This document shows positions 21,219 to 63,181 of a DNA stretch of 64,000 nt, piece after piece. The notes beneath the pieces are model-generated. The model had not been told where the DNA came from and did no database searches. It worked only from the letters and a program-made list of their open reading frames with translations. This DNA comes from Alphaproteobacteria bacterium. Its GTDB lineage: Bacteria > Pseudomonadota > Alphaproteobacteria > Rhizobiales > NORP267. Position 1 is the stretch's first letter, and each line of letters begins with the position of its first letter. The position numbers and the translations under genes were made by a program. The stretch lies in assembly GCA_028599125.1 (NCBI GenBank), contig JAQRMX010000028.1:3898-67897 (forward strand), written 5' to 3'.

Positions 21219-23651
21219 TCATAAGATTCTGGCTCCACGCGTGGATGAGCGGCGGCCGGACCAACGTTTCAAAACTGTAGCAAGCTCATCTGAAACAAAC
21301 GGTTTCGAAAGAAAATCATCCATTCCAGCATGCAAACAGGCAATACGGTCAGCATCACACGCATAACCCAGCATAGCAATAACAGGAATGGAACCTGTAC
21401 CCTGACCTCCCGTTCCTGAACTCAGCGCCCTGATTTGACGTACCGTTTCCGGGCCATCCATCTCCGGCATATGGACATCCATCATTACCACATCAAAAGG
21501 GGACCCCTTTTCATCCTGATCCCGAAGGTGCCTCAAGGCTGCTTCACCCCCATAAACATGAACGACATCGTGTCCTTGTTGCCTCATCAACATACCCGCA
21601 AGGCGCGCGCAGACCTCATTGTCTTCTGCAAGAAGAACACGAAGACCCGACTGTTTTTTCTTGGTCGGAAGCAGACAGGGGACAGGAGTGCATGCTATTT
21701 TCTCTTCCCCATGATCAAGAATGTGGGAAAAAAGGGATGCCGGACGGACCGGCCGTACAATATAGGAATCAAAACCCAGATCACCCATACGGGATACTTG
21801 ATTACGCTCGTTAAGACGCAAAAGGGCAATTCGCTTCTTAACGGGGAAAAAAGAACAGGAAGACAAGAGCCCAGACACAGAATCCGCATAGGATAAATCC
21901 GACAGGATAACAGGCTGCTCTCCCTGATCTATGCCCTCAACAAGCCAAAACAACGATAAGCCCACATCATCAAATTGTTTCACAGAACCTCCGGCATCAC
22001 AGACAATATTCGCCAGACGTGGCCCTTCCATGACCGAATTCGATAAAAGCGCAACCCGATAACCGCGCAAGACCATATCAACAGAGACAACAGGTGCACC
22101 TGCATGCGCAAATGAAAGTTCAAAAGAGATTACATTTCCCTTCAGGGGAAAGCGTTCCAAGTGAACTAAACCTCCCATAAGCTCAACAAGGAGATGCGAG
22201 ATAACAAGGCGCAAATCAGAATGATTCTGCCCTCCCTCTAACAAAAAGTCAGAAAAATCAAAATTTTTCCTCGTATTTTCCAGAAAATCACTTGCGATCC
22301 CGAAACCCGTATCGCGAACAGAAAAACATAGCCGCAGCTGGCGGGTTGATGGATCCCAGTGCTCCTCGGCAAGCGATACATCAATCGCAAGCCCACCGCA
22401 CTCACAGGAGGCAAGCCTGTGCGCTGCAAAATCAAGAAGAATACGGCGCAAACATGATTCATCACCAAAAAGAAGACGCGGGACATCGGGATCAATCATA
22501 CTCCCAAGATCCAGACCCCGCTCTTCTGCCTGAGGCGCAAGTAGTTCAATAACCGTCTGAACCAGATCTCCAAGGTCAAAAACAACAGGATAAAATTCAA
22601 CAGCCCCTGAATCAAGCTTTAAAAAATCAAAACTTTCATTCATAAATGAAAGGAGAGACTCAGAAGACCGTTTCACCATAGACGCACAAGACCTCTGTTC
22701 TGATGTAAGAGGTGTATCAAGCAGAAACCCCGTTTTGCTCAGAATATTATTAAGGGCGGTCCTCACCTCCTCACTAAGAGCAAAAAGACACCCGGTGACG
22801 TGCGGACCCTCTCTGTTCCTGCCATCAACAGGCAAAACATCCGGCGCACGAATCTTTTCCCTCACATCATACCCGACACTCCGGATCTCAATCAGTTCAC
22901 CGGAGGCATCATAAAATGGAAAATCAAGCCAGGATACCCATCTCTCGCCAACAGAAAGAACCAAGTTCTGATCATAAACACCGGGACGAGGGACTATACG
23001 GCCTGCTGTAGTCCCACAGAATTCTCTCTCTGGATTGAGCAGTTTCGGGTGATAAAAAGACCCGACAAGCCGGGAGCGATTGCTCCCAAAAAAACGACAG
23101 GCCATATCATTCACAAAAATTATCTGGCCAAATACATTGCGGCACAAAAGCATACGGCCCTGACCGTCATCTACAGGAAGGGAACGCTCCTCACGGTCAT
23201 GAAGAGATTTATTCTCGGCTTCCAGATCCCTGATCCGCTGCTGTGCAATAGCAAAAATGCCAGAATGCTCAGCACACTCATAACGAAGTGAACGCCTCAT
23301 ACGAAAAAAGGAATAAGTCAAACCAAAAACAGAGAGCAGAGCACCTGTAAAGACAAACGCCGAAAAGGACCATAATAAAAGTAAAAACAAGGCAACAAAA
23401 AGAAAAGCCAAGAGGCCTGCGAATGAAGCAGGGGAAATCCTTTCAACAAAAAGCCAGTTCAGATAGGACTCTTCTTTCTCTTTTTTCCCCGGTACCAATG
23501 AAGAAAATTCGTTAGCGCACGCTTTACTATAAGACTCAAATACGCATGGTCGACCAAGATCAATGGCCATAAATGCCTCCCCCCCTTTTTCTTTTTCATG
23601 TCCTCCCTTTTGATATTCATCTGAAAAGCCAGACATCTGGCAAATCTTCAT
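21219..23651 (-). CDS. Membrane-bound hybrid sensor histidine-kinase-like protein with C-terminal receiver domain; the kinase core looks degenerate
   Basis: 810 aa with two hydrophobic helices (~aa 75-115) and a PAS-like region. The HisKA-like helix reads LSEEVRTALNNIL where SHE(L/I)RTPLN is expected. The HATPase region keeps DTGFGI, but the N-box and G2-box are degenerate. The receiver has LLAEDNE, MMDVHMPEMDG and SKPF. Confidence 0.8.
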   Translation of the reverse strand: MKICQMSGFSDEYQKGGHEKEKGGEAFMAIDLGRPCVFESYSKACANEFSSLVPGKKEKEESYLNWLFVERISPASFAGLLAFLFVALFLLLLWSFSAFVFTGALLSVFGLTYSFFRMRRSLRYECAEHSGIFAIAQQRIRDLEAENKSLHDREERSLPVDDGQGRMLLCRNVFGQIIFVNDMACRFFGSNRSRLVGSFYHPKLLNPEREFCGTTAGRIVPRPGVYDQNLVLSVGERWVSWLDFPFYDASGELIEIRSVGYDVREKIRAPDVLPVDGRNREGPHVTGCLFALSEEVRTALNNILSKTGFLLDTPLTSEQRSCASMVKRSSESLLSFMNESFDFLKLDSGAVEFYPVVFDLGDLVQTVIELLAPQAEERGLDLGSMIDPDVPRLLFGDESCLRRILLDFAAHRLASCECGGLAIDVSLAEEHWDPSTRQLRLCFSVRDTGFGIASDFLENTRKNFDFSDFLLEGGQNHSDLRLVISHLLVELMGGLVHLERFPLKGNVISFELSFAHAGAPVVSVDMVLRGYRVALLSNSVMEGPRLANIVCDAGGSVKQFDDVGLSLFWLVEGIDQGEQPVILSDLSYADSVSGLLSSCSFFPVKKRIALLRLNERNQVSRMGDLGFDSYIVRPVRPASLFSHILDHGEEKIACTPVPCLLPTKKKQSGLRVLLAEDNEVCARLAGMLMRQQGHDVVHVYGGEAALRHLRDQDEKGSPFDVVMMDVHMPEMDGPETVRQIRALSSGTGGQGTGSIPVIAMLGYACDADRIACLHAGMDDFLSKPFVSDELATVLKRWSGRRSSTRGARIL

Positions 23652-26655: not shown

Positions 26656-26987
26656 GAAACCGCCTCCCCTACACTCAAGCACACCGTCCCCGACGCGCTA
26701 ATCATACGCTCATTCGGAAGAAACAAATGACAGAAAAAAACCTCTCATAGTCAAAACAGAAAAGAGAAACACATAAGGCAGACAAAAAGAAGACTAGGGG
26801 CCCTCCGAACCTTTTTGCTATCTGTTAAAAAACCTCAACGGTAACAGGCCCGATATCCATACGGTTCCTTCTTCACTTTATGGGGAATAGATTATGATGA
26901 ATAGAAAAACCGGAACCTTTCTCCAGAATGAGATGATGGTAATCGGAAATTTCAAATCAATCAACGGTTCTCATAAATCCTTAACCG

Positions 26988-27029
26988 AATCTATACCTTA
27001 AAATAATCTATACCTTAAAATAATCTATA
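26988..27029. repeat. 17-bp tandem repeat, ~2.5 copies (aatctataccttaaaat)
   Basis: Perfect copies at 26988-27004 and 27005-27021, plus a partial copy at 27022-27029. It lies in the 490-bp gshB/yraN intergenic region. Confidence 0.9.
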
Positions 27030-27144
27030 ATGATCCTGTTTTCTCTTTGAGAGTAATTCTACTTATGAGGGAGTATTTCAAGGAGACAACCATAGGTTTA
27101 ACTGTGTGCCCCTATAAACCACAACAAAAAATATATCATCGCTA

Positions 27145-27582
27145 CTATAAAATCTCAGAAAACTCAAAACATCTCCCATAAACAAAAAAATGATACAAAG
27201 GATAAACAACAACCAAATTCAGACTCGCACTCCAGCATGGTGGAAGCTGCCCCTTTCTAGCTTCTTTCTGTAACCAGACAGATGCCGCATTACGAATACG
27301 CCGCACCTGAAAAGAAGACAAGACTTCTCCCCCTTCCGCAGGCCCCGAACGCCCCTTCACTTCAAAAAAAGAAAAATGTGTACCCCGACGCACGATCAGA
27401 TCAATTTCACCAAGAGATGTACGAAAACGACGGCCCAGAATCCTGTAACCCCGACAAAACAAAATAAAGCTAACCATCCCCTCCGCACGAAGACCTAGAC
27501 GATAAGCCCTTCTTTTTCTCTCCCGCTGATCTTCTTTTCTTTCTTTCATTACACTTTCAACATGATACAGCCCCCTTATCAA
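27145..27582 (-). CDS. yraN: YraN-family (UPF0102) endonuclease-like protein; start uncertain (alternative Met at 27549)
   Basis: Contains the segment GEIDLIVRRGTHFSFFEVKGR typical of YraN/UPF0102. It neighbours gshB and the LpoA-like gene. Confidence 0.8.
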   Translation of the reverse strand: MIRGLYHVESVMKERKEDQRERKRRAYRLGLRAEGMVSFILFCRGYRILGRRFRTSLGEIDLIVRRGTHFSFFEVKGRSGPAEGGEVLSSFQVRRIRNAASVWLQKEARKGQLPPCWSASLNLVVVYPLYHFFVYGRCFEFSEIL

Positions 27583-27655
27583 ACCGCCCCTGCCATATTA
27601 TCGCAAGTGGGAAACACTAAGAAATAGGGATAAACAGAAAATACAACAGATAAAA

Positions 27656-27715
27656 CAAATAAAATTTCATATAGCAATCATTAGGCAAATAAAATTTCAT
27701 ATAGCAATCATTAGG
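27656..27715. repeat. Perfect 30-bp tandem duplication (caaataaaatttcatatagcaatcattagg x2)
   Basis: Copies at 27656-27685 and 27686-27715 are identical. They sit in the divergent yraN / LpoA-like intergenic region. Confidence 0.95.
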
Positions 27716-27874
27716 ATTGAACGATATAAAGCTAGAAAAAAGGTTCGGCAGGGGCATGATTGAAAGCAATGCGGGTAAAAAAGCATATAGCGCAGAGTAG
27801 GAATGAGGAGAACGAGACTTTGACTTCCGAGAGAACCAATCACGATAAATTCACCAAGCAAGGAAAGAGACAAA

Positions 27875-35223: not shown

Positions 35224-35372
35224 GAATATAGTGAAAAAGGAATTAAAATAATGTTAAGCATATATTTATTCCTCTTCCTCTCGGGAACAGAAAAAACAAG
35301 GAGGAAACGAAAGGCCCGTTCATTAAAACAATGAAAAAGACTGAAAAAAGAGTCTCATGAACATATAATGGC

Positions 35373-39744: not shown

Positions 39745-40488
39745 TTGTCATACGAAGGCATACTTTTGAAAAAAAAAACGCCTCTTGAACCGAAAGACCG
39801 TCTTATCCTCGCCCTTGATCTGCCTTCAGTAAATGATGCCCGTTACCTAGTAGATAAGATCGGGGAAACGGTTTCAATTTACAAGATCGGTTACCGTCTC
39901 GGCTATGCAGCAGGTGGTCTTGAGCTTGCTCAACAGCTGGTTGAGCAGGGAAAGCAGATTTTTCTTGATTTCAAACTGCATGATATCCCTCAAACCGTAA
40001 GCCAGGGGATTAAATCCCTCAGCAGGACGGGCGCGTCTTTCCTGACAGTTCATGCTTATCCACAGACCATGCGCGCCGCCATTAAGGGACGAGGGGCGGG
40101 AGACCTCACATTACTTGCGGTAACGGCACTGACATCTTATGACGACACAGACGCGGCGGAAGCCGGCTATGCTCTCAATATTCATGACCTGACTGCACGT
40201 CGTGCCCGACAAGCCTGTGAAAGTGGCATGGACGGACTTATTATCGCTGCAACCGAGGCTAAGGATATCAGAGCAATAATCGCTCCTCATATTGAACTGA
40301 TTACGCCCGGTATCCGGCCTTTCGGAGCGCTCGCGAATGATCAGAAACAAACCATGACGCCCGGAGAAGCACTAAAGGCCGGGGCTGACCGGCTCGTCAT
40401 CGGACGCCCCATACTTTCTGCCAATGATCCTAAAGAGGCCGCAAAGCAGATCATGGATGAAATTAACGAAGCTTTGACGACCGCATAA
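39745..40488 (+). CDS. pyrF: Orotidine-5'-phosphate decarboxylase; start uncertain (TTG)
   Basis: Motifs LILALDLPS and DFKLHDIPQTV are present, along with the C-terminal segment RLVIGRPI. Confidence 0.9.
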   Translation: MSYEGILLKKKTPLEPKDRLILALDLPSVNDARYLVDKIGETVSIYKIGYRLGYAAGGLELAQQLVEQGKQIFLDFKLHDIPQTVSQGIKSLSRTGASFLTVHAYPQTMRAAIKGRGAGDLTLLAVTALTSYDDTDAAEAGYALNIHDLTARRARQACESGMDGLIIAATEAKDIRAIIAPHIELITPGIRPFGALANDQKQTMTPGEALKAGADRLVIGRPILSANDPKEAAKQIMDEINEALTTA

Positions 40489-42037: not shown

Positions 42038-43031
42038 CAACAGGAGCCAGAGTTCCTCTCCCTGTAAAAATCGTAAAATCAGGAAAACGCAAAGGGGGGT
42101 ATGCGGCTTCTTGATCCTGATATTCTGAGCAACGAGCCGTAAAGGACTTCAGCTTCACCATAGATCACAATCTTTTCAATGGAGCCTTTTCCTTTCCATG
42201 ACGCTCAAAACCCGTGAGCGAAAAAACGAGGAGGGCAGGGGAATAATATTCGTTGCGCAGAAAAAACATACTTAAATCCTGAATTTCAAATTCTTCTGCC
42301 TAACATATAAGTTAGTTTCAAATCACTTTGGAAAAACAATCTTCTCACACGAGCGGTCAATGAGTTTTATGATTTTTTCTACCCGCCTTCCATTCATACC
42401 TGCTTTGTCATGGTGAAAACTGATCCAGTGTAAAATAGGGGTTACTCCGGAAACTATAGAAAGCAATTCATCATGCATATAGTCTCGTCCGCATAAAAAA
42501 TTAAATTAAGCGCGGCATCTCCACGTTTTTTCCCATCTTTGAAAAAAAGATTTGTCAAGCTTAGTGAAAGCTATACGTACCGGTTATCAACCTATGTGGT
42601 GTAAGTTCGGGACTTCATTGAATGAAAAAAGGACATTCCCCCCTCAGCTAAAAAAGACAGACGGATGATATCCGCCTCTGCTGCCATGAGCAGAAATTTA
42701 AGGAATCAAAGGCGGATATAATCTTCTGAACCGCAAAAAACAACCCTTGCAATTCACTAAAACTGCCGCATCCCTCACACAGATTGTAGACAAAAGAACT
42801 TCACAAGAAGGCAACAAGCCGGAATACAAACTCCCCTTTCCCGAAACCTATAAAGCGCTGCACGACCAGACAATGTAGAACACATTGACTATGAAAACAG
42901 GGAAGATAAAAGAAGGAGAAACAGGAGACAGAAAACACCTTCCAGATCCCCGGCCCCACCCCCTGATTTTTGAAAAAACATTTAGAAGAATACAGAGCCT
43001 GATACAGGCAGCGCGCAGCAGGAACTCTTAT

Positions 43032-48957: not shown

Positions 48958-49919
48958 TGAGACTCCTTGGATTTTACACTCTCCCCCTGCCTACAAGACA
49001 AAGGCACAGCTGAAATAAAAGGATAAAGGAAGAAAGAGACCATGAAAAGGGAAACAGAAACGACAATTCAATGCCCTGTATACCCAGATGATCAAAATCT
49101 GGAACATGTACAGGAGCAAAAGCAAACCCCCGTCTCAACGGGAGACATGACATAGATCTTCCGTACATGCAAGATCGCAAAAACTAACCGACCGGCAAGA
49201 AAAGCTACAGAAAAACGCAAATGAATCCTGTATCCCCATATTTCCTCGAAACATAAGCTGTGCTTTAGCACGCATCGTTCAGAAAAAAGCTACAAGCGTC
49301 TTAAAAAGAGGAACAGATCCCCCTCCCGGATTTTCCTTCAGCCCTGACAGAAAAGTGAACCATCTTCTCCTTGACTGCGAGCTCTGAATAAATTTTCATA
49401 AACAATGAAAATGCAAAAGAGCCTCTCTTGAAGAATTCATTTTCTGCAAACCCCTGGATCGCAGAAGCGGACGTTCCCTTTTATCCGAATACAAAAAGAA
49501 CACATGACGAATCACAGACACGCCTGCATAATTAAATTTCGAAAGACAGAAGACAAGAAATTAGAATAAAGAAAAGAAAAAAGCACCCTAATTAAAATCC
49601 TACCTGAAAAGGGCACTATCACTGAACAGTGTGCCTACAGATAGAATCTGCCCTCATAAACAAACCCCTCATTTAATTCCGGCTCGAGAAAAATTCCAAA
49701 ACAAAAAACAGAACGGCTTTTCCTCTATAAAATCAATTTCCTGAGTGCTCCAAACTGAAAGCTATCAGCGCCGCCCCGTACAGAGGCATGAGAGAGTCGA
49801 AGTCATCGAAGAGAGGCTCTTGGAACGAACACTTATTCCTTCCTCCTCCGGCTTTCTTTGTGCAGAAACAAACCAAGCCCAACGGTAAAAAAGAAAGTAA
49901 ATTATAAAACCGCGCGCAC

Positions 49920-58817: not shown

Positions 58818-59429
58818 TCAGCGCAAAGATACGATCTCGTCCCTACCTGATATAACAGATAAAATATGCGTGATCATCTGCTCCATTTTTTCGGGACTAT
58901 CCGTTGTATCAATAAGAAAATCCGCCCGCCTGCATTTTTCTTTTTCACTCATCTGTCTCTTGAGGAGAGAGGTAATCCAAAGATCACTTATTCCCTCCCG
59001 TTTCTGCAAGCGCGCTTTTTGAAGGGAGGCTTGCGCCTTTGTGACAACCACAAAATGACACAAGACTTCGTAACCGGTTTCAAAAAGAAGAGGAATATCC
59101 AGAACGACATTTTTTTCCCCTTTTTCACGGCATAGATTCAGAAAAGCATGTATCTCTGCCTCAATGAGAGGATGAACAATTGATTCAAGTCGGTTAAAAG
59201 CGGACGGGTCAGAAAGAAGATGCTCCCGCAGACGCTGGCGATCTATGTCTTTCCCTTCAAGGACCCCTGTAAATGCATTTGCAACCGGCAGAACGGCCGC
59301 CCCATCCCCGCTATAGAGCTTCCGGACGCCCTCATCAACATCAAAAACCGGAATGCCGCGCGCAGCAAAAAGGCGCGCACTCGTTGATTTGCCTGTCGCA
59401 GCAGAACCCGTTATCCCTATAACCTGCAT
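58818..59429 (-). CDS. coaE: Dephospho-CoA kinase
   Basis: ORF 58818..59504. The likely start is MQVIGITGSAATGKST (P-loop) at 59429. Confidence 0.9.
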   Translation of the reverse strand: MQVIGITGSAATGKSTSARLFAARGIPVFDVDEGVRKLYSGDGAAVLPVANAFTGVLEGKDIDRQRLREHLLSDPSAFNRLESIVHPLIEAEIHAFLNLCREKGEKNVVLDIPLLFETGYEVLCHFVVVTKAQASLQKARLQKREGISDLWITSLLKRQMSEKEKCRRADFLIDTTDSPEKMEQMITHILSVISGRDEIVSLR

Positions 59430-59462
59430 TATCGTTCTTGTGCCCTGTAAAAGATTTTCATT

Positions 59463-59500
59463 CCTGAAAATTCCTTTCCGCCCTGAAAATTCCTTTCCGC
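59463..59500. repeat. Perfect 19-bp tandem duplication (cctgaaaattcctttccgc x2)
   Basis: Copies at 59463-59481 and 59482-59500 are identical. They lie 34 nt upstream (minus-strand sense) of the coaE start, in the 169-bp maf/coaE gap. Confidence 0.95.
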
Positions 59501-59598
59501 GCAAAAAATCACCCGATAGAAATTTAGCAGGAAAACAAGAGAGAGAGACCAGAGAAAAACATTTTTATTTCCTCCGCATAATTGCTTCAATAGAAACA

Positions 59599-60213
59599 TT
59601 ATGAAGGTAAAATAAGTTCCGAACGCAAAAAATTCAGCAAAGGAAGGAGCGGTAAACCGAGAATTGTGAAATAATCACCCTCAATCCTTTCAAAAAGTTG
59701 TATGCCGTTTTCTTCAAAACGGTAAGCCCCGAGCATAGAGATATATGGTTCAGAACACCCGGAAATATAATTATATAGAAAACTATCGCTGAACGGACGC
59801 ATTGTCATATGGGCGACATCTGCATACCGCCAAAGCACGTTATTATCACGAACACAGACCACTCCTGAATGTAAACTATGAGACTTCCCCCGTACTTTCT
59901 GAAGAAATTGATGCGCCTCCCTCGGGCCCGAAATTTTGCAAAAAATACAGCCTTCAAAGAATAAAATCTGATCTGCCCCTATGACACAGGCTCCCGGATA
60001 GCGGGACGTAATGAAACGCGCCTTAGCCTCAGATAAGGAAAGAACTAATTCATCCGGATCTCCTTCTAATTTTTCAGAAAGAAATTCGATCTCATTAATA
60101 TCAGCTGGTTCAACAGAAAATGTAACGCCGGCATCAGAAAGAATCTTAGCCCTGATCGGAGAACGTGAGGCCAGTATAAGCTGAGGCAGAAAAGAGGACT
60201 GTTTCTGTTTCAT
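59599..60213 (-). CDS. maf: Maf-family nucleoside triphosphate pyrophosphatase
   Basis: ORF 59599..60231. A start at 60213 forms an ATGA overlap with the stop of the upstream gene. The motif LILASRSPIR is present. Confidence 0.9.
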   Translation of the reverse strand: MKQKQSSFLPQLILASRSPIRAKILSDAGVTFSVEPADINEIEFLSEKLEGDPDELVLSLSEAKARFITSRYPGACVIGADQILFFEGCIFCKISGPREAHQFLQKVRGKSHSLHSGVVCVRDNNVLWRYADVAHMTMRPFSDSFLYNYISGCSEPYISMLGAYRFEENGIQLFERIEGDYFTILGLPLLPLLNFLRSELILPS

Positions 60214-61058
60214 GGTAATGCGTTTGAACAACGTTCCCTGTAAAGCAAAATCACCGCTGCCGCCGTTTCTTCTATTGAACGGCGTGTTACATCAATCACA
60301 GGCCAATTGTATGCAATACATATCTCCCGTGTTGCAACAATCTCCCGTGCAATGAAACGACGATCAACATAATCAGTCCCGTCATCAGCGTGAAGGGACA
60401 ATATACGACTTCTTCTGATCTGTAAGATATGATCCACATTAGCAACCATTCCTACAACCAGAGCCTCTTTCAGGAAAAATAATTCCTGAGGGAGGGGAAT
60501 ACCTGAAACAAAAGGGACATTAGCTGTTCTTATTCCCCGATTAGCAAGATAAATGCTCGTTGGTGTCTTTGACGTGCGGCTGACGCCGATAAGGACCACA
60601 TCTGCTTTATCAAGATCCTGAACCTGATGTCCATCATCATGAACCATAGTAAAATTAAGCGCCTCTATCCGCTTAAAATAATCAGCATCAAGTACATGCT
60701 GACCGCCCACACGGGGAGTCATTTCCATTCCCAAATAGGAACGAAATACGCTCAAAACAGGATCAAGGACGCAGGTAAAGGGAAGGCCCATGTGACTACA
60801 ATGCTCTTCAAAAGAACAATTAAGATCGGGATCTACCAGAGTGTAAAGAATAATACCTGGGGCTTCACGGATTTCTGAAAGAACCTGATCAAGCCGCTTT
60901 TGCGATCGCACAAGGGAATGAACATGTTCAAGAGCCCGCCTGGAAGGATATTGTGCAGCTGCAGCGCGTGAAATCGCAATCAGTGTTTCTCCGGTTGCAT
61001 CTGATACCAGGTGAACATGAAAACAATCCCTTTCATCTTCCAAACCTGATTGTTCCAT
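60210..61058 (-). CDS. DUF299-family pyruvate,phosphate dikinase / PEP synthase regulatory kinase-phosphorylase
   Basis: 282 aa with motifs HVHLVSDATGETL and the P-loop-like VLIGVSRTSKTPTS. Confidence 0.88.
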   Translation of the reverse strand: MEQSGLEDERDCFHVHLVSDATGETLIAISRAAAAQYPSRRALEHVHSLVRSQKRLDQVLSEIREAPGIILYTLVDPDLNCSFEEHCSHMGLPFTCVLDPVLSVFRSYLGMEMTPRVGGQHVLDADYFKRIEALNFTMVHDDGHQVQDLDKADVVLIGVSRTSKTPTSIYLANRGIRTANVPFVSGIPLPQELFFLKEALVVGMVANVDHILQIRRSRILSLHADDGTDYVDRRFIAREIVATREICIAYNWPVIDVTRRSIEETAAAVILLYRERCSNALP

Positions 61059-61539
61059 TTTATTTCCCCGGATAATGACGGCAGGCTCCCTCCTTTCTTG
61101 TCACTTCATGAATCATGAACAGTGGAAAAAAAGGGGATAAGGTAAAATCGAATCTGTGATTTCTGATATTTTCCCTATTTACAGGAAATTTTATCAACAA
61201 TGAAACTGCCTATGAACAATCGCCTTACAGATTCCATATTCCTTTCCTGCTCACTTCATTCCAACATGAATTACACATGTTGAACAAGGCTTTTTCTCCT
61301 TTGATCAAAAGGAAATAAATATCTGTTAAATTTAATGTTTTTTATTTTCACTTCAGAAATAATCCACAATAGATAAAAAATCATTCCTCTTCCATTATGA
61401 TATGGGGATAAGGATGTGGATCATATTTAATTACCGTAATCCAGAAAGTAACAAAAAAAACAATATAAAAAGATTCCTTTTTTATTTTATTAAGAAAAAG
61501 TAAAACAAACGGATAGAAAGATCAAAAAAGAGAAAATGA
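61059..61539. other. Candidate chromosomal replication origin (oriC)
   Basis: A 481-bp ORF-free divergent gap next to hemE. DnaA-box-like 9-mers were read directly: aggggataa 61132-61140 (2 mismatches), ttatcaaca 61191-61199, taatccaca 61360-61368, tggggataa 61403-61411 and tgtggatca 61415-61423 (1 mismatch each to TTATCCACA/TGTGGATAA). A/T-rich runs lie at 61321-61350 and 61441-61510. Strand composition flips across the gap. Confidence 0.65.
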
Positions 61540-62565
61540 ATGAAATTAAAATCAGTATTTCAAAATCATAAGACTGGCCCTATTCCCGTATGGATGATGC
61601 GTCAGGCTGGCCGTCATTTACCGGAATACAGGGAAATAAGGAAAAAAAATCCCTCTTTTATGTCTCTTTGCTATAATCCGGAAATTGCGTGTGAGATTAC
61701 GCTACAACCTGTGAGACGTTACGGTTTTGATGCAGCTATTTTATTTTCTGATATTCTCGTCATTCCAGATGCCCTTGGTCAAAAGGTTAATTTTGTTGAA
61801 GGAAAAGGAATAGAGATTAATCCTGTTACCAGCGGGAGTGCCCTGGCTCGTCTGGATACCCATCGAATTTTATCGCATTTGCAGCCCGTATTTGAAACAA
61901 TTTCCCGTGTGAGGGAAAACCTTACTTCAGAGACGGCCTTAATCGGATTTTGTGGAGCGCCATGGACCGTTGCTGTTTACATGACAGGAAGTCATGCAGT
62001 ACCGCACCATATGCCTATTCGTTCATGGTCCTATAATGCACCGGAAGACTTTTCTGTTTTGATCTCACTTCTTGTTGAGGCCTCTATTACTTATCTTGAT
62101 GCACAGGTAAAAGCCGGCGCAGACGTCCTGCAAATTTTTGAGAGCTGGGGAAATCTGCTCCCGCAGAAAGAGTTTGAACGTTGGTGTATGGAACCAATCA
62201 GGAAAATTATCAGTGCTCTGAAAGAATCTCATCCTGATGTTCCGGTTATTATTTTTTCTCGGGGTATAGGATATTCTTTTGTGAAGTTGGCAAGCTATTG
62301 CCTTCCGGACGGGTTAAGCCTGGATAGTTCCTTTCCTCTTGATTTTGCTCGTAAACATTTGCAACCACATGTTGTTTTACAGGGAAATCTTGATCCTGTT
62401 CTTCTTGCTGTTGGAGGTCCTTTTCTTGATAAGGCTGTAGATACACTTCTTGATGAACTTGGTGAGGGGGCCTTTATTTTCAATTTGGGACACGGTATTC
62501 TTCCGCAGACACCTCCTGAACATGTAGCTCATGTCGTAAAAAAAATACGCGAAAGGTCTCATTGA
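61540..62565 (+). CDS. hemE: Uroporphyrinogen decarboxylase
   Basis: 341 aa. The N-terminal motif PVWMMRQAGRHLPEYR and the later segment ILFSDILVIPDALG are present. Confidence 0.95.
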   Translation: MKLKSVFQNHKTGPIPVWMMRQAGRHLPEYREIRKKNPSFMSLCYNPEIACEITLQPVRRYGFDAAILFSDILVIPDALGQKVNFVEGKGIEINPVTSGSALARLDTHRILSHLQPVFETISRVRENLTSETALIGFCGAPWTVAVYMTGSHAVPHHMPIRSWSYNAPEDFSVLISLLVEASITYLDAQVKAGADVLQIFESWGNLLPQKEFERWCMEPIRKIISALKESHPDVPVIIFSRGIGYSFVKLASYCLPDGLSLDSSFPLDFARKHLQPHVVLQGNLDPVLLAVGGPFLDKAVDTLLDELGEGAFIFNLGHGILPQTPPEHVAHVVKKIRERSH

Positions 62566-62683: not shown

Positions 62684-63181
62684 TTGTATTTTTCCTTTTC
62701 TTGTTATTTCTTGTTATTTCTTGTTATTTCTGGTTTTTTTGTGGATTATTTGGTTTTAAAAACACTCCATATCCTTTCTATAATTGCCTGGATGGCTGGT
62801 CTTCTCTACCTTCCTCGCCTTTTTGTTTATCATGCAGACGTATCACCGGAGAGCGAAACGGCGTCTGTTTTCAAACTTATGGAGCGACGTTTGTTGAGGA
62901 TAATCATGACACCGGCCCTAATTGCGAGCTGGATTTTTGGTCTTGGTACTGCTTATGTGTTTGATTTTAAAGCTTTTATGCAACAGCCTTGGTTTCATTT
63001 AAAATTAGGTCTTGTTATTTTGCTTGTAGGTCATCATTTTTTTCTTGCGTATCATGTACGTCTTTTTGCACGGGGAAATAACCACCATAGCGCTATTTTC
63101 TATCGTGTTATTAATGAAATTCCTGTTCCTCTTATCATTCTCATTGTTGGACTGGTTGTTATCCGTCCCTTTGAATCCTAA
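62684..63181 (+). CDS. hemJ: Protoporphyrinogen IX oxidase HemJ (UPF0093/CopD-like membrane protein); start uncertain (TTG 62684 or in-frame GTG 62741)
   Basis: The segment KTLHILSIIAWMAGLLYLPRLFVYH is typical of HemJ, and the protein has four hydrophobic helices. It follows hemE. HemJ homologs usually have only ~6-20 aa before this helix, which favours the GTG at 62741. Confidence 0.85.
   Translation: MYFSFSCYFLLFLVISGFFVDYLVLKTLHILSIIAWMAGLLYLPRLFVYHADVSPESETASVFKLMERRLLRIIMTPALIASWIFGLGTAYVFDFKAFMQQPWFHLKLGLVILLVGHHFFLAYHVRLFARGNNHHSAIFYRVINEIPVPLIILIVGLVVIRPFES
62701..62730. repeat. 10-bp tandem repeat x3 (ttgttatttc)
   Basis: Three perfect copies, read directly. They lie at the 5' end of or just upstream of hemJ, depending on which start codon is used. 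Confidence 0.95.

Follow-up and report, generated by a model that had tools for sequence, protein, structure and literature searches.

The locus described here raises a simple question: is the 481-bp non-coding gap between the genes DUF299 and hemE, at positions 61059-61539 of the 64-kb stretch of DNA that was analysed (the window), the place where chromosome replication begins in the uncultured low-G+C alphaproteobacterium that carries it? Judged from its sequence features, this gap is very probably the chromosomal replication origin of the organism. The assignment had been put forward in the original prediction, and it is supported by a cluster of DnaA boxes, by a switch in strand composition, by a layout and an AT-rich element that are conserved in relatives, and by a parS site located 3.4 kb away. 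Those computational checks suggested with the original prediction that could be carried out all favoured it. The gap and its boundaries are as follows.

60210-61058, minus strand: DUF299 gene (COG1806, Kinase-PPPase; pyruvate,phosphate dikinase / phosphoenolpyruvate synthase regulator), PF03618 E = 6e-84
61059-61539: candidate chromosomal origin, a 481-bp non-coding gap of 31% G+C (69% A+T) compared with 46% G+C in the window
61540-62565, plus strand: hemE (uroporphyrinogen decarboxylase), right boundary of the gap, PF01208 E = 2e-107

The DUF299 protein scores 312 bits against NF003742 (cut-off 225), and the hemE protein scores 391 bits against TIGR01464 (cut-off 303). hemE is the classical indicator gene for alphaproteobacterial origins. 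The two genes diverge from the gap, and a location adjacent to hemE and/or DUF299 is expected of origins that resemble Cori, the origin of Caulobacter crescentus. The coordinates, length and divergent orientation given in the original prediction are exact, and no open reading frame (ORF) longer than 46 amino acids is present within the gap. The sequence could be extended to the right with Logan contig L001 (run SRR23320467), which matches the window at 100% identity along 12,461 bp, the gap included, and lengthens the sequence by 4.1 kb, to window-equivalent position 68128. The window and this extension together are referred to below as the 68 kb.

DnaA boxes of the gap

There are seven candidate DnaA boxes in the gap, each of which differs by one or two mismatches from the perfect box TTATCCACA.

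61121-61129, minus strand: weak DnaA box TTTTCCACT, 2 mismatches; absent from the original prediction
61132-61140, minus strand: weak DnaA box TTATCCCCT, 2 mismatches; W-box-like
61191-61199, plus strand: DnaA box TTATCAACA, 1 mismatch; best conserved element of the gap
61360-61368, plus strand: DnaA box TAATCCACA, 1 mismatch
61403-61411, minus strand: DnaA box TTATCCCCA, 1 mismatch; has the Caulobacter W-box core TCCCCA; downstream member of a tandem pair
61415-61423, minus strand: DnaA box TGATCCACA, 1 mismatch; exactly the Caulobacter G-box; upstream member of the tandem pair
61437-61445, plus strand: weak DnaA box TAATCCAGA, 2 mismatches; on the margin of the main AT-rich tract; absent from the original prediction

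All five 9-mers that had been listed earlier (61132, 61191, 61360, 61403 and 61415) are present with one or two mismatches. The last two are co-oriented and are separated by only 3 bp (GGA), such that their starts lie 12 bp apart, or approximately one helical turn. Box 61415 lies 125 bp upstream of the hemE ATG and box 61360 lies at 180 bp. Box 61121 forms a convergent pair with box 61191, which lies 70 bp to its right. The Caulobacter G-box reads TGATCCACA, and TCCCCA is the consensus of the Caulobacter W-boxes (PMC4285127). Both of these degenerate classes of Cori are represented on the minus strand of the gap, the former by box 61415 and the latter inside box 61403.

An exact 10-mer, GGGGATAAGG, is found at 61133-61142 and 61404-61413 and has no other copy in the 68 kb. 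Ten identical bases are thus common to the two TTATCCCC-type boxes, namely eight of the nine box positions and two bases on the TTAT side. Box words with one mismatch are also present in the flanking coding regions, at 62740-62748 and 62895-62903 in hemJ and at 60430-60438 in DUF299, and one of these three words is a second exact G-box. Counting the gap and these words together, 7 of the 25 boxes of the 68 kb fall within 2.5 kb.

The density of boxes was compared with that in 5000 shuffled versions of the gap of unchanged dinucleotide composition. There are four boxes with at most one mismatch, compared with a shuffle mean of 0.21, and none of the 5000 shuffles reaches four. With at most two mismatches there are seven boxes, compared with 2.3 expected, and 30 of the 5000 shuffles reach this number. 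No other 481-bp stretch of the 68 kb contains more than two boxes, and a single box with at most one mismatch occurs in the 10.7 kb of intergenic DNA outside the gap (the Poisson probability of at least four at this background density is 1.8e-5). A cluster that stands above chance and above other intergenic regions is a feature of Cori-type origins, and an equal density of box-like words in other intergenic DNA, which would have counted against the original prediction, is not what is found.

One alternative is that an AT-rich spacer yields these words by chance, and that the site is a terminus or has no role in replication. Every box in the gap is imperfect, and AT-rich DNA favours words that contain TTAT. 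However, the shuffles preserve this composition and fail to produce the cluster, and the position and orientation of the boxes are conserved in relatives. In addition, the flanking genes diverge from the gap, and the sign of the skew (C over G and A over T to the left, G over C and T over A to the right) is that of an origin. A chance cluster or a terminus is hardly conceivable given these observations.

Strand composition, gene order and relatives

The cumulative GC skew of the 68 kb reaches its minimum at 61393, inside the gap, and the cumulative AT skew reaches its maximum at 61649, just inside hemE, with a resolution of a few hundred base pairs at best. An extremum at about 61.3 kb had been anticipated. 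On the plus strand, C exceeds G and A exceeds T across the left 61 kb, and both biases are reversed to the right of the gap, where the reversal continues through the L001 extension. A skew switch of the kind seen in Cori-type origins is therefore found within the 68 kb. Strand asymmetry is unusually strong in the window, with AT skew of up to +0.43 in intervals of 2 kb.

Among plus-strand genes, the third-position GC skew changes from -0.13 on the left (17 genes, pooled) to +0.19 on the right (6 genes; Mann-Whitney p = 6e-4), and the third-position AT skew changes from -0.02 (n = 17) to -0.30 (n = 6; p = 9e-4). In intergenic DNA alone, the GC and AT skews of -0.12 and +0.26 on the left become +0.16 and -0.22 on the right. 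Because the flip persists among genes of the same strand and in intergenic DNA, it is not an artefact of gene orientation. The polarity is that of an origin and not of a terminus, with the G- and T-rich leading strand pointing outward on both sides. Gene orientation also fits outgoing forks, since the minus strand carries 38 of the 55 genes to the left of the gap and the plus strand all six genes to the right.

The gene order is hslVU-smr-mltA-tim44-fxsA-secB-dnaQ-coaE-maf-DUF299 to the left of the gap and hemE-hemJ-rho-gidB-parA-parB to the right, where rho, gidB, parA and parB are supplied by the extension. The neighbourhood described as conserved in the original prediction (rho-hemE facing DUF299-maf-coaE-dnaQ) is recovered here, with hemJ between hemE and rho. 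A parS site, in the form of the perfect 16-bp palindrome TGTTTCACGTGAAACA, is located beyond the window end (L001 13365-13380, window-equivalent 64904-64919), within the 5' end of gidB/rsmG, upstream of parA-parB and 3365 bp to the right of the gap. Centromere sites of this type are normally origin-proximal. There are no parS-like sites with three or fewer mismatches in the 64-kb window itself.

The order of the window genes begins with nusA, rimP, metK, lnt, ybeY, miaB, trpS, murJ, mutS, gshB, hemN and rph, continues with hrcA, grpE, dnaK, dnaJ, pyrF, dapB and hisE/F/A/H/B, and then runs from hslVU through DUF299 to hemE and hemJ. The genes of the window and its extension are housekeeping chromosomal genes. 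On the Logan contig, hemJ is publicly annotated as a gene of just 91 amino acids, whereas an ORF that starts from TTG at 62684 (62684-63181) encodes 165 amino acids and spans the entire HemJ model TIGR00701 with a score above the cut-off. The 5' end of the gene is probably missing from the deposited annotation.

The closest hemE among 5.8 billion proteins is 61% identical, and the closest among GTDB representatives is 49% identical. The best matches to DnaK, at 77-81% identity, are from Hyphomicrobiales (Tepidamorphus, Ancylobacter, Bosea and Methylobacterium). G+C content is 46% in the window compared with 59-65% in the relatives L082, L002 and L004. By these sequence measures, the organism is a member of a deep, poorly sampled low-G+C alphaproteobacterial branch whose nearest named relatives are Hyphomicrobiales.

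Six relatives were compared (L082, L083, L084, L085, L002 and L004), whose hemE proteins are 44-61% identical to that of the window and whose gaps are 41-53% G+C. At such distances, the footprinting is long-range only, because a nearest hemE of 61% identity makes fine-scale phylogenetic footprinting impossible. L082, L083, L084 and L085 retain the junction of DUF299 and hemE as well as the flanking gene order, as far as their contigs reach. In L002 and L004, a large minus-strand ORF is located upstream of hemE in the same position as DUF299. A short-range skew switch is clear in the 9-21 kb loci of L082, L002, L083 and L085.

Some differences in gene order are also evident. Here rho is followed directly by gidB (L001 11954-13983, window-equivalent 63493-65522), and mnmE and mnmG are absent from this position. 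mnmE is downstream of rho in L082-L085, and mnmG is next in L082, L083 and L084 (L085 ends within mnmE). Likewise, aroE is found between coaE and maf in L082, L083 and L084 and is absent from that position here (58818-60231). In a shrinking genome, these genes may have been moved or lost. There are also ORF-free stretches of about 850-1190 bp at 42038-42884, 48958-49919 and 26683-27874, among housekeeping genes that are otherwise rather tightly packed, and none of these stretches has an Rfam match at gathering score. They could be pseudogene remnants, or genes or RNAs that are not recognised. A reduced genome is thus suggested, although unproven, by the low G+C content, by the absence of aroE, mnmE and mnmG from conserved positions and by the ORF-free stretches.

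This remodelling is relevant to another alternative, in which the gap is the relic of an ancestral origin or the neighbour of a rearrangement breakpoint, the skew switch is the result of a recent inversion or of mis-assembly, and the active origin is elsewhere. The replicon is unclosed and the sequence is from a contig of a metagenome-assembled genome (MAG), which would leave room for such events, and the absence of the three genes from their usual positions attests to some local change. Against this, the Logan assembly is independent of the MAG and is identical to it across the gap, and the order on both sides is as in five of the six relatives (the contig of the sixth stops one gene to the left of DUF299). 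Skew is uniform over the left 61 kb, and mutational skew is slow to build up. Furthermore, parS and parAB are still adjacent, and neither the boxes nor the AT-rich element show decay, both being conserved. A relic or breakpoint is therefore very unlikely.

The conservation of the elements of the gap can be traced box by box. A reverse box and a forward box that are 69-70 bp apart are present near the DUF299 end of the gap in the window (61121/61191) and in L082, L084 and L002. The forward member, box 61191, is an identical TTATCAACA in L082 and L084, is box-like in L083, L085 and L002, and contributes 5 of the 19 columns that are invariant in the six-way alignment. Box 61132 (TTATCCCCT) aligns to GGGGATGG in L082, and box 61437 (TAATCCAGA) aligns to GTATCCACG in L083 and to TGATTCACC in L082. 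The counterpart of box 61360 in L084 is TTATCCCCA, which has the same orientation and is located 172 bp from hemE compared with 180 bp here. A tandem reverse pair with a spacing of 11-12 bp is found in the window, L082, L084 and L004. In these sequences and in L002, the homologous reverse boxes precede the hemE start by 110-137 bp, and the counterparts of box 61415 in L082, L084, L002 and L004 do so by 110-131 bp. This pattern argues that the elements of the gap are functional and homologous.

Unwinding candidates and other motifs

The gap holds two AT-rich candidates for an unwinding element, one of which contains a conserved motif.

61303-61359: second AT-rich tract, alternative unwinding element; 61307-61347 is 88% A+T
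61445-61505: main AT-rich tract, best candidate for the unwinding element; 87% A+T, least stable 60-mer in the 68 kb
61472-61476: GATTC (GANTC motif that CcrM might methylate), part of the conserved block AAGATTC

The A/T-rich runs that had been noted at 61321-61350 (87% A+T) and 61441-61510 (81% A+T) are both present in a window of 54% A+T, and the gap as a whole, at 69%, exceeds the mean as do Cori-type origins. By nearest-neighbour stability, the segment 61453-61553, which overlaps the main tract, is the least stable 100-mer in the 68 kb. At the second tract, 61315-61375 is the fifth least stable 60-mer in a non-overlapping ranking, and 61303-61403 is the fourth least stable segment at the 100-bp scale.

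The least stable 40-mer of the whole 9-21 kb locus falls in this gap in all six relatives, and it is the hemE-proximal tract in five of them. In the relatives with an identified tandem reverse pair, this tract lies to the right of the pair at a distance of 40-60 bp (there is no pair in L085). The hemE-proximal AT-rich block of the relatives carries the conserved AAGATTC. Upstream of the hemE ATG, a GANTC motif is found at a distance of 68 bp in the window, L084 and L085, and close to this position in L082, L083 and L002. Thus, stability and conservation favour the right tract, whereas the geometry of the tandem pair, if read as that of a basal unwinding system (BUS), would favour the left tract instead. 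The unwinding tract is most likely 61445-61505, on the hemE side, and this tract probably also carries the hemE promoter.

In a further alternative, the gap is no more than a divergent promoter and regulatory region, where DnaA controls the transcription of hemE and/or DUF299. The origin would then be nearby, perhaps in the hemE-hemJ or hemJ-rho spacer, or beyond the sequence. Box-like words are present inside hemJ (62740, 62895) and DUF299 (60430), the AT skew maximum lies just within hemE and therefore outside the gap, the skew locates an origin only to within a few hundred base pairs, and sigma-70-like hexamers are present in the gap. However, a sigma-70 promoter scan of the gap yields two matches compared with 2.8 expected from shuffles, and is uninformative. 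There are no boxes in the hemE-hemJ spacer (118 bp) or the hemJ-rho spacer (311 bp), and no other intergenic region of the 68 kb exceeds one box. Moreover, the least stable duplex is within the gap itself, and the gap is homologous to the experimentally mapped origin of Caulobacter (PMC6393856). A purely regulatory function thus appears distinctly unlikely.

For the gap as an origin, one possible course of events is as follows. DnaA-ATP would first occupy the better boxes (61191, 61360, 61403 and the G-box 61415), and the weaker boxes (61121, 61132 and 61437) would then be filled cooperatively. The tandem pair 61403/61415, with its spacing of one helical turn, might seed a DnaA oligomer that melts the adjacent AT-rich tract, most likely 61445-61505. 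Helicase loading would follow, and two forks would leave in opposite directions. Perhaps the opening is helped by transcription that starts at the hemE promoter within this AT-rich tract, as reported for Caulobacter, where replication needs transcription from a hemE promoter (PMC6393856). Finally, ParB bound to parS, 3.4 kb to the right, would segregate the new origins.

A number of observations weigh against the assignment of this gap as an origin, or at least fail to support it. There is no perfect box TTATCCACA in the gap, and the sole perfect copy in the window is at 40056-40064, inside pyrF and with no other box near, where it is most likely a chance occurrence. The skew extremum is local and not replicon-wide, as it is based on 61 kb to the left of the gap and 6.6 kb to the right, and among the relatives the short-range switch is unclear in L084 and L004, the spans of 9-21 kb being altogether too short to decide. 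The gap has no exact CtrA site (TTAA-N7-TTAA), the only one in the whole window being at 35243, and its two CtrA sites with one mismatch are at chance level (39% of shuffles equal this number). The consensus for integration host factor (IHF), WATCAANNNNTTR, has no match on either strand of the gap, which is weak evidence given that the Caulobacter IHF site deviates from it. GANTC motifs are not significantly enriched in the gap (4 compared with 2.3 expected), and there is no convincing DnaA-trio array beside any of the seven boxes.

CtrA sites are a feature of the Caulobacter and Rickettsia origins that is not universal. Because the gap lacks a canonical site, direct control by CtrA is not expected. 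One of the two sites with one mismatch, the degenerate CtrA-like ATAA-N7-TTAA at 61315-61329 in the second AT-rich tract, aligns to an exact TTAA-N7-TTAA in L082. An 810-amino-acid hybrid histidine kinase (21219-23651, minus strand) was considered as a candidate for CckA. Its receiver domain is unambiguous, whereas HisKA and HATPase fall short of the Pfam cut-offs, and the CckA models match the receiver domain only, such that the protein is uninformative on the CtrA pathway.

An Rfam scan of the gap and of the whole window gives no match at gathering score, and thus a small RNA (sRNA) like Caulobacter CCNA_R0094 is unsupported. The sole match with E of 1 or less is to an MS2 hairpin at 61257-61280, which was rejected because its score is below threshold (20.3 bits compared with 40). 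The sequence TCACTTCA occurs three times on the plus strand of the gap, at 61101-61108, 61251-61258 and 61348-61355, each time with a pyrimidine-rich 5' flank, and the gap holds three of its seven copies in the 68 kb. Striking at first sight, it is weakened as a candidate motif by the fact that 2.8% of gap shuffles contain some 8-mer three times, and it is not conserved in L082, the closest relative.

A variant of the origin assignment is that the gap is a stripped-down version of a Cori-type origin from which direct control by CtrA and IHF has been lost. A lineage-specific factor that acts on the three TCACTTCA copies or on the duplicated GGGGATAAGG boxes would then be a new regulator of origins. 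We consider this variant to be distinctly unlikely.

The assignment is of practical use for annotation, since it would set position zero and both replichore starts for an uncultured lineage that is represented only by a MAG contig 82 kb long. The position of an origin also helps to orient and scaffold the assembly, and it permits growth rates to be estimated from read depth (peak-to-trough ratio). For comparative work, the conserved parts are the convergent box pair 70 bp apart, the tandem pair about 120 bp upstream of hemE and the hemE-proximal AT-rich block with its GANTC motif. The gap would be one more hemE-linked origin without CtrA motifs, beside that of Sinorhizobium meliloti. No new biological question is opened by it.

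Comparison with known origins

The gap lacks the marks of origins of the enterobacterial type, which are rich in GATC, carry 13-mer repeats and are governed by SeqA and Dam. There are three copies of GATC in the gap, or 6.2 per kb compared with 5.1 per kb in the window, which is background density, and no repeated family of AT-rich 13-mers was found in the gap. The BUS of Bacillus subtilis and many phyla consists of tandem DnaA boxes no more than 3 bp apart together with DnaA-trios, wherein the trio array (3'-GAT-5') lies within about 16 bp of a box and 13 bp is the commonest reported spacer (PMC8287927). The gap has such co-oriented tandem boxes with 3 bp between them, the upstream box 61415 is the nearer to consensus, and 13 bp separate it from the first triplet with a central A. 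There are only three such triplets (CAT TAT GAT), none of which fits [T/A]A[G/A], such that a trio array is not established here, and no other box in the gap is better in this respect. The most unstable tract is on the opposite side of the tandem pair.

The predicted origins of the Rickettsiales (Rickettsia, Wolbachia, Ehrlichia and Anaplasma; Ioannidis et al. 2007) are also hemE-linked. Rickettsia has the same arrangement of hemE and COG1806. For Wolbachia and its relatives, the origin was predicted in silico as a region that adjoins hemE, holds more binding sites than any other intergenic region, is rich in A+T and coincides with a shift in skew (PMC1914354). All of these features are found here: the gap adjoins hemE and COG1806, it is the most box-rich intergenic region, its A+T content is high and the skew shifts. 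The Rickettsiales origins typically include an IHF site and from zero to seven CtrA sites, such that some of them likewise lack CtrA sites (PMC1914354), whereas neither type of site is present at consensus level here. The synteny of this locus (hisBHAF, hslVU, secB, dnaQ, coaE and maf) is that of the free-living relatives L082-L084.

S. meliloti is a member of the Hyphomicrobiales, which are also the nearest group by DnaK (77-81%). The chromosomal oriC of S. meliloti is reportedly hemE-linked, a finding credited to Sibley et al. in 2006. As in the present gap, that origin has no CtrA sites (PMC4433202). The low G+C content seen here (46%) is much below that of S. meliloti, and aroE, mnmE and mnmG are absent from their conserved origin-proximal positions.

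In the Caulobacter Cori, which maps between hemE and duf299 (CCNA_00001), an AT-rich region is accompanied by two G-boxes and five W-boxes, by five CtrA sites and as many GANTC sites, and by one IHF site (PMC6393856). The present gap lacks an exact CtrA site, an IHF consensus and a detected sRNA, and it is much more AT-rich (69% A+T) than Cori. Its own placement of elements has the AT-rich element on the hemE side and parS/parAB within a few kb. Nevertheless, the same divergent genes flank both regions, with DUF299 as the left boundary here as in Cori, and both have an AT-rich element, GANTC motifs and imperfect DnaA boxes only, among which an exact G-box TGATCCACA stands beside a TCCCCA site of the W-box type. 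As a probable origin, the site is an ordinary example of the well-known hemE-linked type of alphaproteobacterial origin, and it will not surprise a specialist.

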